From Phycisphaerae bacterium (GTDB lineage Bacteria > Planctomycetota > Phycisphaerae > Sedimentisphaerales > Anaerobacaceae): a stretch of DNA of 64,000 bases. Within the stretch, counting starts at the first letter, position 1. The number at the start of each line of letters is the position of its first letter. Positions 2,539 through 59,101 of the stretch are shown piece by piece. The notes beneath the pieces were generated by a model. That model was not told where the DNA came from. It worked only from the letters and a program-made list of their open reading frames with translations, and ran no database searches. The translations under genes were made by a program, and so were the position numbers. The stretch spans positions 1,509-65,508 of the forward strand of contig JAUXAL010000008.1 in the NCBI GenBank assembly GCA_030619925.1, given 5' to 3'.

Positions 2539-2936
2539 TTATCTCCAAAGTCAGAAGTCAGAAAACAGAAGTCAGAAAAACTCTGCCAATTGTTCATTAA
2601 ACGATAAAGCATAGCATTGACTTCGTCATATCCATTATCCAACCTCTTATGCTCATCCTTCGTAATATACATACAATCTTTTGCAAAGTCTAACCATCCT
2701 CTTGTTTCTTCAGACGATCCTAAAGAATCATTTAGATGCCTAATGAGCACTTGCTCATATTTTCTTTTAGCAAATCCTTCGCGTATATTTATAGCAACTG
2801 ATCTCGATGAACGTCTCATCTGATCTGTTAATGAATATGTTTCTTTTTTAGAAAACTTCTTGGTTATCTCAAATATCTCCATAGCAAGCTGATAAACAAT
2901 CTGATATACTTTCAAATCTTTTACACTCTTAATCAC
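2535..2936 (-). CDS. four-helix-bundle protein (23S rRNA intervening-sequence protein / Avd-like family)
   Basis: DLKVYQIVYQLAMEIFEITKKFSKKETYSLTDQMRRSSRSVAINIREGFAKRK matches the family pattern. The start is set at GTG 2936 because the longer ORF (to 3071) runs through the tRNA-Leu gene. Confidence 0.65.
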   Translation of the reverse strand: MIKSVKDLKVYQIVYQLAMEIFEITKKFSKKETYSLTDQMRRSSRSVAINIREGFAKRKYEQVLIRHLNDSLGSSEETRGWLDFAKDCMYITKDEHKRLDNGYDEVNAMLYRLMNNWQSFSDFCFLTSDFGDK

Positions 2937-2959
2937 CGTTTTCTCTCTGTCTTCTGTAA

Positions 2960-3043
2960 TAGCCGAGGTGGGAGTCGAACCCACATGCCCATTACGGGCA
3001 GGGGATTTTAAGTCCCCAGCGTCTGCCGTTCCGCCACTCGGCC
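2960..3043 (-). tRNA. tRNA-Leu (anticodon UAA), type II with long variable arm
   Basis: Folded by hand: acceptor GGCCGAG/CUCGGCU, anticodon stem GGGGA/UCCCC with loop CUUAAAA, variable arm UGCCCGUAAUGGGCAU, T arm GUGGG-UUCGACU-CCCAC, discriminator A, no encoded CCA. Confidence 0.9.
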
Positions 3044-7267: not shown

Positions 7268-7735
7268 ATGATTAAAGAAGTAAAAGGTCAAGTAACAGCC
7301 GGCAAGGGCAATTACGCTATCGTAGTCAGCAGGTTCAACGAATTCATAACCTCTAAGCTGCTTGCCGGTGCGATAGATTGTCTCCAGCGTAATGGTGCTG
7401 CTGATAAACAGATATCCGTAGTCTGGGTGCCCGGTGCCTGTGAAATTACGCAAGCTTCCAAAAAGCTCGTACAGAGTGGCAAATACGTCGCGGTCATCTG
7501 TCTCGGCGCGGTCATACGAGGTCAAACCGCTCATTACGATTTTGTCTGTCAACAGGTAGCCCGAGGTATCGGACAAATCAACTACGATTCAGATGTGCCG
7601 ACTGTATTTGGTGTCCTCACCTGCGATACGCTCGAGCAGGCCGTCGAAAGAGCCGGGACGAAAATGGGCAATGCCGGCGCCGACGCAGCACTGACGGCGA
7701 TGGAAATGGCCAACGTGATGGAACAATTAAGTTGA
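7268..7735 (+). CDS. ribH: 6,7-dimethyl-8-ribityllumazine synthase
   Basis: 155-aa ORF with AIVVSRFNEFIT, VWVPGACE, CLGAVIRGQTAHYDFV and GVLT motifs characteristic of RibH. It precedes nusB as in many bacteria. Confidence 0.9.
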   Translation: MIKEVKGQVTAGKGNYAIVVSRFNEFITSKLLAGAIDCLQRNGAADKQISVVWVPGACEITQASKKLVQSGKYVAVICLGAVIRGQTAHYDFVCQQVARGIGQINYDSDVPTVFGVLTCDTLEQAVERAGTKMGNAGADAALTAMEMANVMEQLS

Positions 7736-7793
7736 TAGTTATGAGTTCATAGTTCATAGACTCTGAACAATGAACAAAGAACAATGAACTTTG
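7731..7793. repeat. 9 tandem degenerate heptamers spanning the ribH stop and nusB start
   Basis: gttgata gttatga gttcata gttcata gactctg aacaatg aacaaag aacaatg aactttg. The nusB ATG (7784) is the last 3 nt of one unit. Confidence 0.8.
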
Positions 7794-56081: not shown

Positions 56082-57212
56082 TTACTTATACATCTTGTCA
56101 AAATAGTGCTGGGCGCTGACCACTGCACCTCTCATCACATCTTCAGCCTTGGCAGTCTCTCGCTTGGCGAGCACGTCCATCAGCCCGGCCGTATCCAGCT
56201 CTCGCGCAGCTTTTTCGCAGGCCTCCCAGCTCAGCACACTTCTTACCACTCTGTCGATTCCCTGCTCGCTGGTATCGTATGCCCGCGTTTGCATATCATG
56301 GCCTTTCCACCGGCTAAAGCCGGCCTGCTGGATAAGTCCCGCGATTGCAACGTTCATTCCGTTTACTCTGGCCCCGTGGTCGATGTCATACTTGCCGGGC
56401 CCGCCGAGAATAATACCGTCGTTGTAGCCCTGGCTGTTCAGATGCATATGCACCATCATATCGTTATCCAGCTCTTCGACTGTGTCGTATACGTGGTCAA
56501 GCCCTATCATTTCTGAATGTCCGAACTCTTTGTTTACACCTTTCTTATCTCTGGAAACTCCGAACTCATCCTCGATTTTTCTCCAGAACAAAAGCGCACT
56601 TGCCACCGTCGGGATTAACATCGCGGGGTGTCCCTCGTTCGGCTTCGGCTCAAAGCCTATATAGAGACTGCCACCTTTCTCTTCTTCGTATTTACACAAC
56701 CCGGCGATGCTTTCCTTGAGATTCTGATACATCTGCCGGATGCCGACAGTGGCAATGTCATAACCAAACGAGCCGTTCCAGATTATAAGCGATGGCGCCT
56801 TGTCCGCTTCCGGATGCCACGCCTTTTTGAGAGGCCCATAGGTCAAATCGACCGTCCTTGTGCCCAGGTCCTCAGCCGCCTTTCTTTCGTTCGCATCCAG
56901 CGACGCAACCCCGCCGTACGCAAAGTGACAATGCGCACCCGGCGTAACCATCGCCAGATACAGCCCCGTATCCACGAGCGCATCGGCCACCGCCGCGGCA
57001 TTGTCGTCATCGACTTCCGCATCGTAGTGTATCTCGATACCCAGCTCGATGTTGTCCGGCAGCCGTGGGGCGATTTTGTCGCCTACCAGCTTAATCATCT
57101 CCGGCGTGCCGAACTTGCCGCCCCACTCCGGCCGCATGTCCCCCGGCACAAACCCACCCTTACCCGGATTAAACGTCCATCTGCAAATACTATGCAAAGA
57201 TTTCTTTGCCAT
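56082..57212 (-). CDS. xylA: xylose isomerase-like TIM-barrel sugar isomerase (probable divergent class-I-type xylose isomerase)
   Basis: FEPKPNEGHPAMLIPTV, VNKEFGHSEMIGL and HMHLNSQ segments parallel the EPKPNEP, NPEVGHEQMAG and HIDLNGQ motifs of xylose isomerases. Start set at ATG 57212 after an AAAGGAG RBS. Adjacent to an FGGY kinase. Confidence 0.6.
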   Translation of the reverse strand: MAKKSLHSICRWTFNPGKGGFVPGDMRPEWGGKFGTPEMIKLVGDKIAPRLPDNIELGIEIHYDAEVDDDNAAAVADALVDTGLYLAMVTPGAHCHFAYGGVASLDANERKAAEDLGTRTVDLTYGPLKKAWHPEADKAPSLIIWNGSFGYDIATVGIRQMYQNLKESIAGLCKYEEEKGGSLYIGFEPKPNEGHPAMLIPTVASALLFWRKIEDEFGVSRDKKGVNKEFGHSEMIGLDHVYDTVEELDNDMMVHMHLNSQGYNDGIILGGPGKYDIDHGARVNGMNVAIAGLIQQAGFSRWKGHDMQTRAYDTSEQGIDRVVRSVLSWEACEKAARELDTAGLMDVLAKRETAKAEDVMRGAVVSAQHYFDKMYK

Positions 57213-57258
57213 TTTACCTGCTCCTTTCGGTTTTTTGCCACAAAGACACCAAGACATT

Positions 57259-57317
57259 CCCCACACGTAAGTGTGGGGTCTCTTTGTTTTTTCGCCTCCA
57301 CACATTTACATGTGTGG
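57259..57317. repeat. two hairpins with the same CCACAC/GTGTGG stem between xylB and xylA
   Basis: ccccacac-gtaa-gtgtgggg (57259-57278) and ccacacat-ttac-atgtgtgg (57298-57317). Confidence 0.7.
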
Positions 57318-57333: not shown

Positions 57334-58869
57334 TTAGTGGCTCGTGGTCAATTGCCGTTTCAAAACATCTTCCCACCTTTTATAGGCCTCTTGATATGCT
57401 CCTGTTAGTTTTTCGTTGGGCTCGATTGTCTTGACAGGCTCTAAGCCGACAAAAGCATCCTCTGCTCCGCTGTAGATGCCTGCACCAATACCTGCTCCCC
57501 TCGCGGCCCCTTGCGAACCATCGGTATTGTATAGTTCCACGGTCGCGCCGGTAATCGTTGCAAAGGCCTCCGCAAACAGCGGACTCAAGAACATATTGGC
57601 ATTTCCCGCCTTGACGGTCTTTAGTTCAATTCCCATATTGCGCATTATCCCAAGCCCGTAATTCAGCGCAAAAACGATTCCTTCCTGGGCAGCCCTGAGA
57701 AAATGGGCCTTTTTGTGCACATTAAAATTCCATCCGTGAACAGATGCCCCTATATTCTTATTTTCCAGCGTTCTTTCAGCCCCGTTGCCATAGGGGAGTA
57801 TTACCAGCCCGTCGGACCCAACCGCAATTTTCGCCGCCAGTTTGTTCATCTGGTCATAGTCTAACGGCTGGCCGCTTTCAAAATTATGTTTCAACCAACT
57901 ATTCAGAATCCCCGTCCCGTTAAGGCAAAGCAATACACCGTACCTGGGACTGCTCTGTGAATGATTGACATGAACGAATATGTTTACGCGCGACTGCTGG
58001 TCATAGTTTTTCTTGTCGCTGATTCCGTACACCACACCCGAAGTGCCGGCCGTAACAGCGATTTGCCCGGGCTCTAATACGCCTAATGACAGAGCGTTAT
58101 TAGGCTGGTCGCCGGCCCTGTAGCTTATTTTGGTCCCGGCCTTAAGTCCCAGCTCATCCGCGGCAGCCGCTGTTAGCCGGCCCTGGACGGAAAACGTAGG
58201 GACTGTTTCGGCAACCAGCTTGGAGGAAATGCCGTAGTTTTCGAGCACAAATTCAGCTAATCCGTCGCTCTCGAAATCCCACATTATCCCTTCAGACAAA
58301 CCCGAGGGAGTCGTTTTTATCTCGCCGGTCATCTTCATCGCAATATAGTCGCCCGGCAGCATTATTTTATGAATTTTAGAATAAACCTCCGGCTCATTTT
58401 CTATGACCCATCTTAATTTCGACGCTGTAAAATTGCCCGGCAGGTTGAACAATCTTTTGAGGCACTTTTCTTTCCCGATATCTTCTGCCGCCTTTTCGCC
58501 GATATGCACTGCTCTGCTGTCGCACCAGATTATCGACGGCCTCAGCACCTCTTTATTTTCATCCACCACAACCAGTCCGTGCATCTGGTACGAAATCCCA
58601 ATCGCCTCCACATCCTTTAGCGTATAGCGTTTAGCGTTTAGTTTTCTATCCGCTGTACGCTGTACGCTATTCGCTATCTCTCTTGTGGCTTTCCTGACGT
58701 GCTCCCACCAGACTTCAGGGTGCTGCTCAGCCCAGCCTAACTCTTCTGCGACAATCTCCAATTCTTTTTCCGGCGAAGTCGCCGTCGCTAGCACCTTACC
58801 CGTCTGGCCTTCCATCAGCGTTGCCTTTACGGATGAGCTTCCAACATCGTATCCCAATAATAACGCCAT
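57334..58869 (-). CDS. xylB: FGGY-family carbohydrate kinase (probable xylulokinase)
   Basis: LLGYDVGSSSVKA N-terminus, ISYQMHG, GDQPNNALSLG, GTSGVV motifs, 511 aa, upstream of the isomerase gene. Confidence 0.75.
   Translation of the reverse strand: MALLLGYDVGSSSVKATLMEGQTGKVLATATSPEKELEIVAEELGWAEQHPEVWWEHVRKATREIANSVQRTADRKLNAKRYTLKDVEAIGISYQMHGLVVVDENKEVLRPSIIWCDSRAVHIGEKAAEDIGKEKCLKRLFNLPGNFTASKLRWVIENEPEVYSKIHKIMLPGDYIAMKMTGEIKTTPSGLSEGIMWDFESDGLAEFVLENYGISSKLVAETVPTFSVQGRLTAAAADELGLKAGTKISYRAGDQPNNALSLGVLEPGQIAVTAGTSGVVYGISDKKNYDQQSRVNIFVHVNHSQSSPRYGVLLCLNGTGILNSWLKHNFESGQPLDYDQMNKLAAKIAVGSDGLVILPYGNGAERTLENKNIGASVHGWNFNVHKKAHFLRAAQEGIVFALNYGLGIMRNMGIELKTVKAGNANMFLSPLFAEAFATITGATVELYNTDGSQGAARGAGIGAGIYSGAEDAFVGLEPVKTIEPNEKLTGAYQEAYKRWEDVLKRQLTTSH
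58618..58678. repeat. two mutually complementary blocks of tandem heptamers inside xylB
   Basis: tagcgta tagcgtt tagcgtt tag (58618-58641) and cgctgta cgctgta cgctatt cgctatc (58651-58678). The blocks can pair (agcgtttagcgt / acgctgtacgct, 10 Watson-Crick pairs plus 1 wobble out of 12). Confidence 0.75.
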
Positions 58870-58938: not shown

Positions 58939-59101
58939 CCCCTGGCCTTTGGCCGGGGTAACTTTTTCTCGCCGTTGATTTAACCAAAAAAGGGCTGGCC
59001 AAGCCAGCCCTTAATTTCCTTTTATGTTTAGCCCCCGGCTTTGCCGAGGGTTGCTTTCCCGTTATGTTTAGCCCCGGCCTCTGGCCGGGGGTTGCTTTTT
59101 T
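58939..59101 (+). repeat. family of GC-rich hairpins preceded by ATGTTT(ag/ca)CCCC and followed by T tracts
   Basis: cccctggcc-ttt-ggccgggg (58939-58958), gggctgg-ccaag-ccagccc (58992-59010), ccccggcc-tct-ggccgggg + ttgctttttt (59072-59101). Direct repeat ttatgtttagcccc at 59021 and 59061. Confidence 0.65.

Follow-up and report, generated by a model that had tools for sequence, protein, structure and literature searches.

A translated heptamer-repeat hairpin in a variable loop of a planctomycete xylulokinase and its likeness to the arms of PF05635 cassettes

How does a conserved sugar kinase come to carry, within its coding sequence, a hairpin built of tandem seven-nucleotide units? The question is raised by a 64,000-nt stretch of DNA from Phycisphaerae bacterium (GCA_030619925.1, contig JAUXAL010000008.1; hereafter the window), which is part of contig C6 of a 4.02-Mb draft genome in 141 contigs (92.8% complete). 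In the window, the gene for an FGGY-family xylulokinase of 511 aa (xylB; 57334-58869, minus strand) holds a 60-nt, heptamer-armed hairpin (58618-58677, minus strand) that is translated as residues 65-84, IANSVQRTADRKLNAKRYTL. Two loose ends meet at this locus: the origin and upkeep of heptanucleotide repeats in bacteria, and the role of PF05635, the "23S rRNA intervening-sequence protein," which is built as a four-helix bundle and is akin to Avd, a protein of diversity-generating retroelements (DGRs). We argue below that the xylB hairpin is probably a gene-less member of a family of PF05635 cassettes whose units share an AGCG core. This member would sit in a permissive loop from which stop codons have been purged, would evolve by slippage of three units and by replacement with other families, and would be a passenger and not an adaptation of the kinase.

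An in-frame hairpin in the xylulokinase gene

On the plus strand, the element reads tagcgta tagcgtt tagcgtt tag (58618-58641), followed by tttt and by ctatc cgctgta cgctgta cgctatt cgctatc (58646-58678). The coding (minus) strand accordingly begins with a 5' arm of nAGCGnn units (ATAGCGA ATAGCGT ACAGCGT ACAGCGG ATAG; 58646-58677), continues with an AAAA loop (58642-58645), and ends with a complementary 3' arm of CTAnACG units (CTAAACG CTAAACG CTATACG CTA; 58618-58641). Tandem Repeats Finder (TRF) places period-7 arrays of 3.7 and 4.6 copies at 58616-58641 and 58646-58677, respectively, with 84-89% matches, and a repeat search returns 24-nt arms that are 79% complementary and spaced by 4 nt (inverted-repeat pairs I1-I4). 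Both arrays contain at least three head-to-tail copies of a 5-11-nt unit, as do the heptanucleotide long simple-sequence repeats (LSSRs) discussed below. The RNA of the coding strand is predicted to fold with -28.2 kcal/mol versus -13.8 +/- 2.5 kcal/mol in 200 dinucleotide shuffles (z = -5.8), none of which is as stable (0/200); the predicted structure consists of 3-7-bp helices separated by 1-2-nt internal loops, matching the period of 7. A preliminary description of this DNA had pointed to two largely complementary heptamer blocks lying in frame in a xylulokinase-like gene, and the arrays, the fold, and the 511-aa FGGY open reading frame (ORF) bear this out.

Only one of the six frames through the element is open, and it is the one in use; the other five hold one to three stops each. 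Translation of an idealized consensus array in the used frame gives IAYSV*RIAYRKLNAKR*TL as compared with the actual IANSVQRTADRKLNAKRYTL, and both stops are avoided by variant units. The third unit of the 5' arm would contain a TAG codon if it followed the consensus ATAGCGT, and the actual ACAGCGT gives CAG (Gln71; 58660-58662, minus strand); the third unit of the 3' arm would contain TAA if it followed the consensus CTAAACG, and the actual CTATACG gives TAT (Tyr82; 58624-58626, minus strand). A sister copy of the AGCG family, found in an unrelated ORF of 876 aa (C126:46981-47057), is read in the same frame with the same two stop-avoiding variants and encodes the peptide IADSEQRIADSKVEKLNAIRYTLNAN. 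Selection to keep the frame open has left clear marks in these stop-removing unit variants and in the three-unit length steps described in the next section.

The host product is intact despite the insert, as the full 511-aa ORF and both FGGY domains are retained (FGGY_N, E = 7.8e-45; FGGY_C, E = 2.7e-11; Pfam). The closest solved structures are the xylulokinases 5vm1 and 2itm, and a xylose-isomerase-like TIM-barrel gene lies downstream (56082-57305, minus strand). More than 200 positions are invariant across 62 xylB orthologues, and the window protein retains the invariant motifs. Among 120 close homologues (79-100% identical), the sole length-variable place is the segment between the WW helix and the AIGISYQMHG strand, which is the site of the hairpin. 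The distance from WW to MHG is 45 residues in the window protein versus 34 in array-free orthologues (for example, WWEHVKTATKKIQAQAEFDAGDVHAIGISYQMHG; an array-free loop reads KKIQAQAEFDAG), that is, 11 aa extra, and an alignment with E. coli XylB (2itm) opens a 13-residue gap exactly at the hairpin-encoded segment. The extra segment that the preliminary description had put at this helix-to-strand junction, with an E. coli XylB loop about 12-17 residues shorter for comparison, is thus found where it was expected.

Across orthologues, the loop tolerates 33-52 residues. The junction presumably sits at a strand end that points away from the catalytic cleft, as the topology of the actin-like fold would have it. 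An AlphaFold2 model built with 62 orthologues is poor overall (mean pLDDT 56, pTM 0.63) and usable only for a helix at residues 51-75 and a strand at 89-94, and the putative surface exposure of the insert is therefore read from the natural length variation and the alignment to solved XylB. In the model, the confident helix reaches through half of the insert, and the segment between helix and strand is of low confidence (pLDDT 57 at the site). On this evidence, the insert is predicted to add about two helical turns and to widen the connecting loop, which would be floppy.

Four repeat families at one site

To place the hairpin among its counterparts, we compared the loop DNA at 164 xylB loci from genome and metagenome contigs and found four repeat families at this one site, of which two form hairpins and two are direct arrays, one of 7-mers and the other of 8-mers. 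Type A is the hairpin of the window. It recurs in independent assemblies and is thus no assembly artefact; the loop of L089 is identical, L081-L084, L086, L090, and L094 carry close variants, and L085 carries a copy that is exactly 21 nt shorter. Type B comprises one or four AAATCNG units, arrayed directly, in loops of 33 or 40 aa (37 aa where the flanks are of another context). The second hairpin, of TCTCGnA and ACGAAnA units, is type C, in loops of 38 or 45 aa, and type D is a direct array of the 8-mers AAGTGCAn and AAGAGCAn in loops of 38 or 46 aa. The majority of orthologues lack the type A hairpin. The preliminary description had proposed an alignment with FGGY kinases of close relatives and had held that orthologues with the same peptide and no repeat DNA would speak against it; every orthologue with QRTADRKLNAKRYT also has the repeat DNA.

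Length differences within a type always amount to three units, which is 21 nt for the 7-mers and 24 nt for the 8-mers of type D, in line with the multiples of 21 nt that had been expected if the frame were under selection. Copy number changes between close relatives, as it does in LSSRs (L085 minus 21 nt; loops of 33/40 and 38/45 aa). No frameshifted allele was found among the approximately 160 orthologous loci that include the region. These figures bear on whether the array could be a phase-variable contingency switch, in which gain or loss of a single 7-nt unit toggles xylB. Repeat number does differ between relatives, and any single-unit change would shift the frame; however, all of the approximately 160 orthologues are in frame, all length differences are multiples of three units, the imperfect units (84-89% matches) would lower slippage, and a catabolic kinase is atypical as a contingency gene, so that such a switch is scarcely credible.

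The loop families are scattered over the gene tree (FastTree, from the protein with the loop removed, ~460 residues; supplemented by pairwise identities), and type A is found in three separate clades. Outside the loop, the window gene is 95.7% identical to L092, which is of type B, and 95.5% to L087, which is of type C. The window and L081 are both of type A, yet they share only ~82% protein and 75.7% DNA identity outside the hairpin. Other pairs repeat the pattern: L125 (type D) and the array-free L135 are 96.8% identical, and L099 (type D) and L106 (type B, one unit) are 97.2% identical. When such near-identical pairs are aligned, the flanks are nearly the same and the middle is wholly different, with sharp boundaries. 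The locus is a compact natural experiment, in which one loop of a conserved enzyme holds four repeat families in near-identical orthologues, each of them matching the arms of PF05635 cassettes (see below).

The same pairs inform on adaptation at the protein level, in which the 11 extra residues would give the kinase a new surface for oligomerization or partner binding and the repeat DNA would be incidental. The peptide is conserved in all carriers of the element, and the predicted helix 51-75 runs through half of the insert, both of which suit this idea. Near-identical kinases nonetheless have entirely different peptides or none, the peptide is dictated by the sole open frame of a dispersed DNA repeat, and it recurs in an unrelated protein (IADSEQRIADSKVEKLNAIRYTLNAN); we regard adaptation of the kinase as very improbable.

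The likeness of the window and L081 is concentrated in the hairpin. The two hairpins differ at 2 of 60 nt, and only ~1% of equal-length segments in the gene are as similar; where residues are identical, the codon is the same in 18 of 19 cases in the hairpin versus 51% outside (P = 5.6e-5). Right outside the 60 nt, identity falls to the gene average (66/90 upstream and 70/90 downstream). This near-identity in diverged genes indicates that the hairpin is either constrained at the nucleotide level or acquired apart from the gene. Simple homologous recombination was rejected as the sole cause of the scattered types, since identity between the window and L081 drops at once beyond the 60 nt. In L125 and L116, ~20 nt of diverged upstream flank is common with other type D genes, and patch transfer may thus contribute in some cases.

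Constraint at the nucleotide level could reflect a functional cis-element in the xylB mRNA, bound by a factor such as a cognate PF05635 protein or cut by RNase III, that ties xylB expression to leader arrays of the same family. The synonymous conservation just described (18 of 19 codons) is what such an element would produce. Most period-7 arrays of the genome lie outside long ORFs (512 of 820, see below), several of them at start codons according to the initial reading of the sequence, and RNase III acts on the stems of the intervening sequences in 23S rRNA (PMC4990558). The stem itself gives a divided answer: in a hand-read alignment of six type A variants, four of seven stem substitutions keep a G-U pair and three break pairs, and unpaired positions change at a similar rate. 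The hairpin has no match near threshold in Rfam, and a scan for promoter-like and terminator-like signals at the hairpin returned none. Orthologues that are 95-97% identical carry unrelated arrays or none, which argues that no conserved regulatory need is attached to xylB; with the hairpin absent from most orthologues and two of the four types unable to form one, an obligatory function in xylB is argued against as well. A cis-acting role is, in our judgment, improbable.

Two loci show additional insertions in the type B array. The loop of the metagenome locus L097, of 52 aa, contains an insert of 57 nt, nested in the array and in frame, that holds a pair of GC-rich hairpins (CCCAGCAACGCTGGG and CCCGCCTTCGGCGGG), and L078 has a different 21-nt insert within the same array. 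The arrays of the xylB loop seem to attract further small elements.

Probable kinship with PF05635 cassettes

The xylB element is one of many heptamer arrays in this genome. TRF finds 1050 arrays of period 7 (820 with at least three copies), compared with 73 of period 6 and 215 of period 8, at thresholds that miss weak arms. On a rough ORF map drawn by a crude longest-ORF heuristic, 512 of the 820 arrays fall outside long ORFs, 162 extend over the end of one, and 146 are deep inside. As to the window, the xylB element had been described as the sole heptamer array deep in a coding region, and the rough census of contig C6 agrees. The period-7 arrays comprise 166 distinct unit families, and 51 of 165 adjacent array pairs (31%) are inverted complements versus 3.7% of random pairs. 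Ten inverted pairs are found deep within long ORFs, with hosts that include a sigma-54-type regulator, a sulfatase, a radical S-adenosylmethionine (radical-SAM) maturase, and a beta-propeller protein. The AGCG/CGCT family accounts for ~25 arrays and at least six hairpin copies; the other gene-less copies have A-rich loops longer than the AAAA of xylB. Hairpins of a second family, CTCGAT/ATCGAG, are located in ORFs at C128:2978-3044, C3:26196-26255, C84:36020-36073, and C92:16609-16683, and their translation in one and the same frame recurrently yields ...(S)ILDE..ESRIE.R..., again with a radical-SAM maturase and a sulfatase among the hosts. A pattern of AGCG at period 7 matched 69 of 401 Planctomycetota genomes, which marks a widespread array type and has little bearing on the xylB locus.

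The genome encodes 10 PF05635 genes, and all 10 are flanked on both sides by inverted arrays of 7- or 8-nt units, some of them partial; of 5000 segments of 310 nt drawn at random, only 3 are bordered by arrays at both ends. In the genome and eight relatives, inverted similarity of the flanks reaches at least 14 in 37 of 46 cassettes versus 5 of 46 in a direct-orientation control, and shuffles average 8.3. The most abundant array families of the genome are the arms of its PF05635 cassettes, and the exact unit of a cassette arm is found in 192 of 810 other arrays versus 23 +/- 25 for letter-shuffled units.

One of these cassettes (C22:2063-2368, left arm C22:2017-2041) has the unit family of the xylB 5' arm. 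Its arms read TAGCGTT CAGCGTA CAGCGTT TAGCGGA TAG on one side of the gene and CTATCCG CTCCACG CTGTACG CTAT on the other; the plus strand of xylB reads TAGCGTA TAGCGTT TAGCGTT TAG, tttt, and CTATCCG CTGTACG CTGTACG CTAT. As far as the letters go, the xylB element is a pair of C22-type arms with four bases instead of a gene. No PF05635 ORF is present between the xylB arms, which enclose AAAA alone, and this makes the xylB copy a gene-less derivative at best and no cassette. With arms of the type seen at C22 and no gene between them, a gene-less derivative similar to miniature inverted-repeat transposable elements (MITEs), or an empty form, is most likely. The arms of type A are matched at C22 in the window genome and in L198, those of type B by AAATCCG/TTTCGGA at C92:10134 in the window genome, those of type C by CGTATGT/ACGAAAT in L192 and ACGAGAT in L196, and those of type D by the 8-mers AAGTGCAn in L187. 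The C22 protein with the AGCG arrays and the C92 protein with the AAATCCG arrays are defined candidate cognate pairs.

We propose the following course of events. The 60-nt segment would belong to a class of hairpins that occur throughout the genome and have arms of short tandem arrays, with units of 7 nt, sometimes 8-9 nt. A gene-less derivative of a cassette would land in, or replace, the place in the xylulokinase where helix alpha1 joins the following strand, and the copy would persist because the loop tolerates 33-52 residues, the copy's length in nt is divisible by 3, and two variant units eliminate the in-frame TAG and TAA. Later change would take the form of slippage by three units (21 nt) and of wholesale replacement with the arms of other cassette families. 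We infer that hairpins of this class are mobile and that the insert is neutral for the enzyme; the element is probably a selfish or neutral passenger.

An ordinary LSSR born in place would offer a simpler history, in which slippage amplified a local heptamer and later an inverted copy, PF05635 played no part, and the shared units reflect a genome-wide bias. Heptanucleotide repeats are the commonest LSSRs in several bacterial groups rich in them (PMC4679880), and a slippage model based on a 7-nt polymerase footprint has been proposed (Mrazek et al. 2007, as summarized in PMC4679880). Slippage would also suit the type B loops, which go from one to four units in similar flanks, and the length steps of exactly three units. 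It gives no account, however, of four loop families that coincide with the arms of PF05635 cassettes, of the same 60-nt hairpin, identical in loop and unit order, in gene backgrounds that are 76% identical, of 31% inverted adjacent arrays versus 3.7% by chance, or of a limited unit vocabulary common to the cassette arms. The match of loop families to cassette arms, the excess of inverted pairing, and the identical hairpin in diverged genes argue against pure local slippage, and we consider an origin in place unlikely.

Several observations weigh against descent of the xylB hairpin from a cassette by insertion. The near-identity of the window and L081 hairpins, which extends to loop and unit order, suits shared descent with nucleotide constraint, or lateral transfer of a patch, over independent insertion. 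The insertion is also not a clean one: the loop minus the element is ~9 codons shorter than an array-free loop, so that the element did not simply insert, and no target-site duplication is visible at the element. One-unit type B loops (33 aa) look like ordinary loop sequence, and some arrays may accordingly arise in place by slippage. Genomes that hold xylB arrays are not clearly told from the rest by their PF05635 load, and those with array-free xylB carry 1-9 PF05635 genes. We know of no transposase or other mobilizing enzyme for PF05635 cassettes. Finally, the direction of descent may be the reverse, with PF05635 genes inserting into pre-existing hairpins.

Two candidate routes of mobility were tried and rejected. 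PF05635 resembles the Avd protein of DGRs (PMC10053308); no RVT_1 match was found in the 92.8%-complete genome, and a reverse-transcriptase route was dropped. A route by way of REP-associated tyrosine transposases (RAYTs), the partners of repetitive extragenic palindromes (REPs), was dropped likewise, as the four weak Y1_Tnp matches of the genome (24-28 bits) include none with heptamer arrays on both sides. One weak Y1_Tnp (IS200/RAYT-like) match lies beside C9:18655-18822, a 36-nt repeat (x4.7) that holds the GC palindrome CCCTGCGGTGCAGGG, and the two possibly constitute a separate system of the REP/RAYT type.

A wider reading, which we hold to be possible but doubtful, is that PF05635 genes and heptamer arrays form one system, in which each paralogue recognizes its own 7-9-nt unit and the arrays are both the ends of cassettes without a transposase, which spread or are copied into hairpin-prone sites, and the gene-less derivatives of these cassettes. 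Arrays typically have four to five units, and Avd, which is related to PF05635, forms a pentamer. If this reading is true, the xylB loop would be a natural hot spot repeatedly hit by four families, and the unexplained heptamer repeats of other bacteria and the orphan protein of the intervening sequences would share one explanation.

Known repeat systems and further observations

The arrays share much with LSSRs, with the short tandemly repeated repetitive (STRR) sequences of cyanobacteria, and with the TAACTGA repeats of Beggiatoaceae: units of 7 nt in three to six copies, hundreds of loci per genome, a mostly intergenic position, often before starts, and variable copy number. As described, those repeats have one or few unit sequences in mostly direct arrays, and in-frame copies in enzymes occur only at protein ends; TAACTGA repeats precede start codons and are rarely found within ORFs, then at the ends of the proteins (PMC4679880). 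The window genome, unlike the LSSR and STRR descriptions, has 166 unit families, a third of adjacent arrays in inverted pairs, and a tie to PF05635 genes.

The cassettes resemble the intervening sequences of 23S rRNA in Coxiella and Leptospira, in which an S23p/PF05635 ORF is enclosed by terminal inverted repeats, and these pair into a long stem that RNase III cuts; the origin of these sequences is described as unresolved, and they have been proposed to be selfish or once mobile, with an ORF that possibly serves mobility (PMC4990558). The PF05635 cassettes of the window genome differ in lying between protein genes and in having arms of tandem 7-9-nt arrays, and the xylB copy differs in having no ORF and in its location in a protein-coding frame. 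As in MITEs and in REPs or bacterial interspersed mosaic elements with their RAYTs, hairpins without a gene are far more numerous than the form that has one (10 genes as against 51 inverted pairs and hundreds of solo arrays), but no associated transposase and no target-site duplication was seen for the arrays of this genome.

For the way in which the xylB element would work, the closest analogy is with the Rickettsia palindromic elements (RPEs), which Ogata and colleagues are said to have described in 2000 as palindromes of 100-150 nt, in frame in conserved protein genes, and apparently selfish. Both are short dispersed palindromes that are translated, in one recurrent frame, as an extra segment, which in xylB is putatively on the surface as in RPEs, and leave the protein undestroyed, and the xylB element likewise combines a dispersed, multicopy palindromic family with an in-frame insertion in an intact conserved gene. 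RPEs, unlike the xylB element, are not made of tandem heptamers and have no PF05635 gene; the xylB site, unlike RPEs, is occupied by several families and changes in three-unit steps. As unit structure and length differ, the comparison extends to the mode of action only.

The literature searched yielded no paper in which heptamer arrays are connected with PF05635 cassettes and in-frame hairpins, and no description of such repeats in Planctomycetota. At this site, heptamer repeats generate protein length variation in a housekeeping enzyme, and odd low-complexity loops in planctomycete proteins call for caution in annotation, as they can be translated repeat DNA.

The window also contains a full PF05635 cassette (2548-2957, minus strand). 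Its gene (2604-2921, minus strand; C6:4112-4429) matches PF05635 with 111 bits, and its arms are (AAGTCAG)x4.3 at 2548-2577 and a partial inverted arm, ctctgtcttctgt, at 2945-2957, of a unit family different from that of the xylB hairpin. The partial arm abuts tRNA-Leu(taa) (2960-3043, minus strand), and the (AAGTCAG)x4 arm doubles as the leader of the next gene. A second inverted heptamer pair, at 7730-7789, has the architecture of the xylB hairpin with units of another family, (AGTTCAT)x4.3 followed after 4 nt by (TGAACAA)x3.7, and occupies the ribH-nusB spacer according to the initial reading of the sequence. Elsewhere in the genome, six ORFs of ~1080-1115 aa (C114:14577, C114:17866, C115:25237, C12:12978, C47:5651, and C108:3673) have heptamer arrays ~1890-1940 nt from their 5' ends, which suggests that they are paralogues with a permissive or hot-spot site in common.

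The neighbours of xylB differ among relatives, with an N6_N4 methylase/Mrr-type gene in L081/L082 and L083/L084 and additionally a DarT/macrodomain (DarTG-like) pair in L081/L082, so that synteny around xylB is not conserved. Just upstream of xylB in the window (58940-59098) lies a series of GC-rich, terminator-like hairpins, seven found versus 1.2 expected, that includes a 40-nt tandem unit at 59015-59098.

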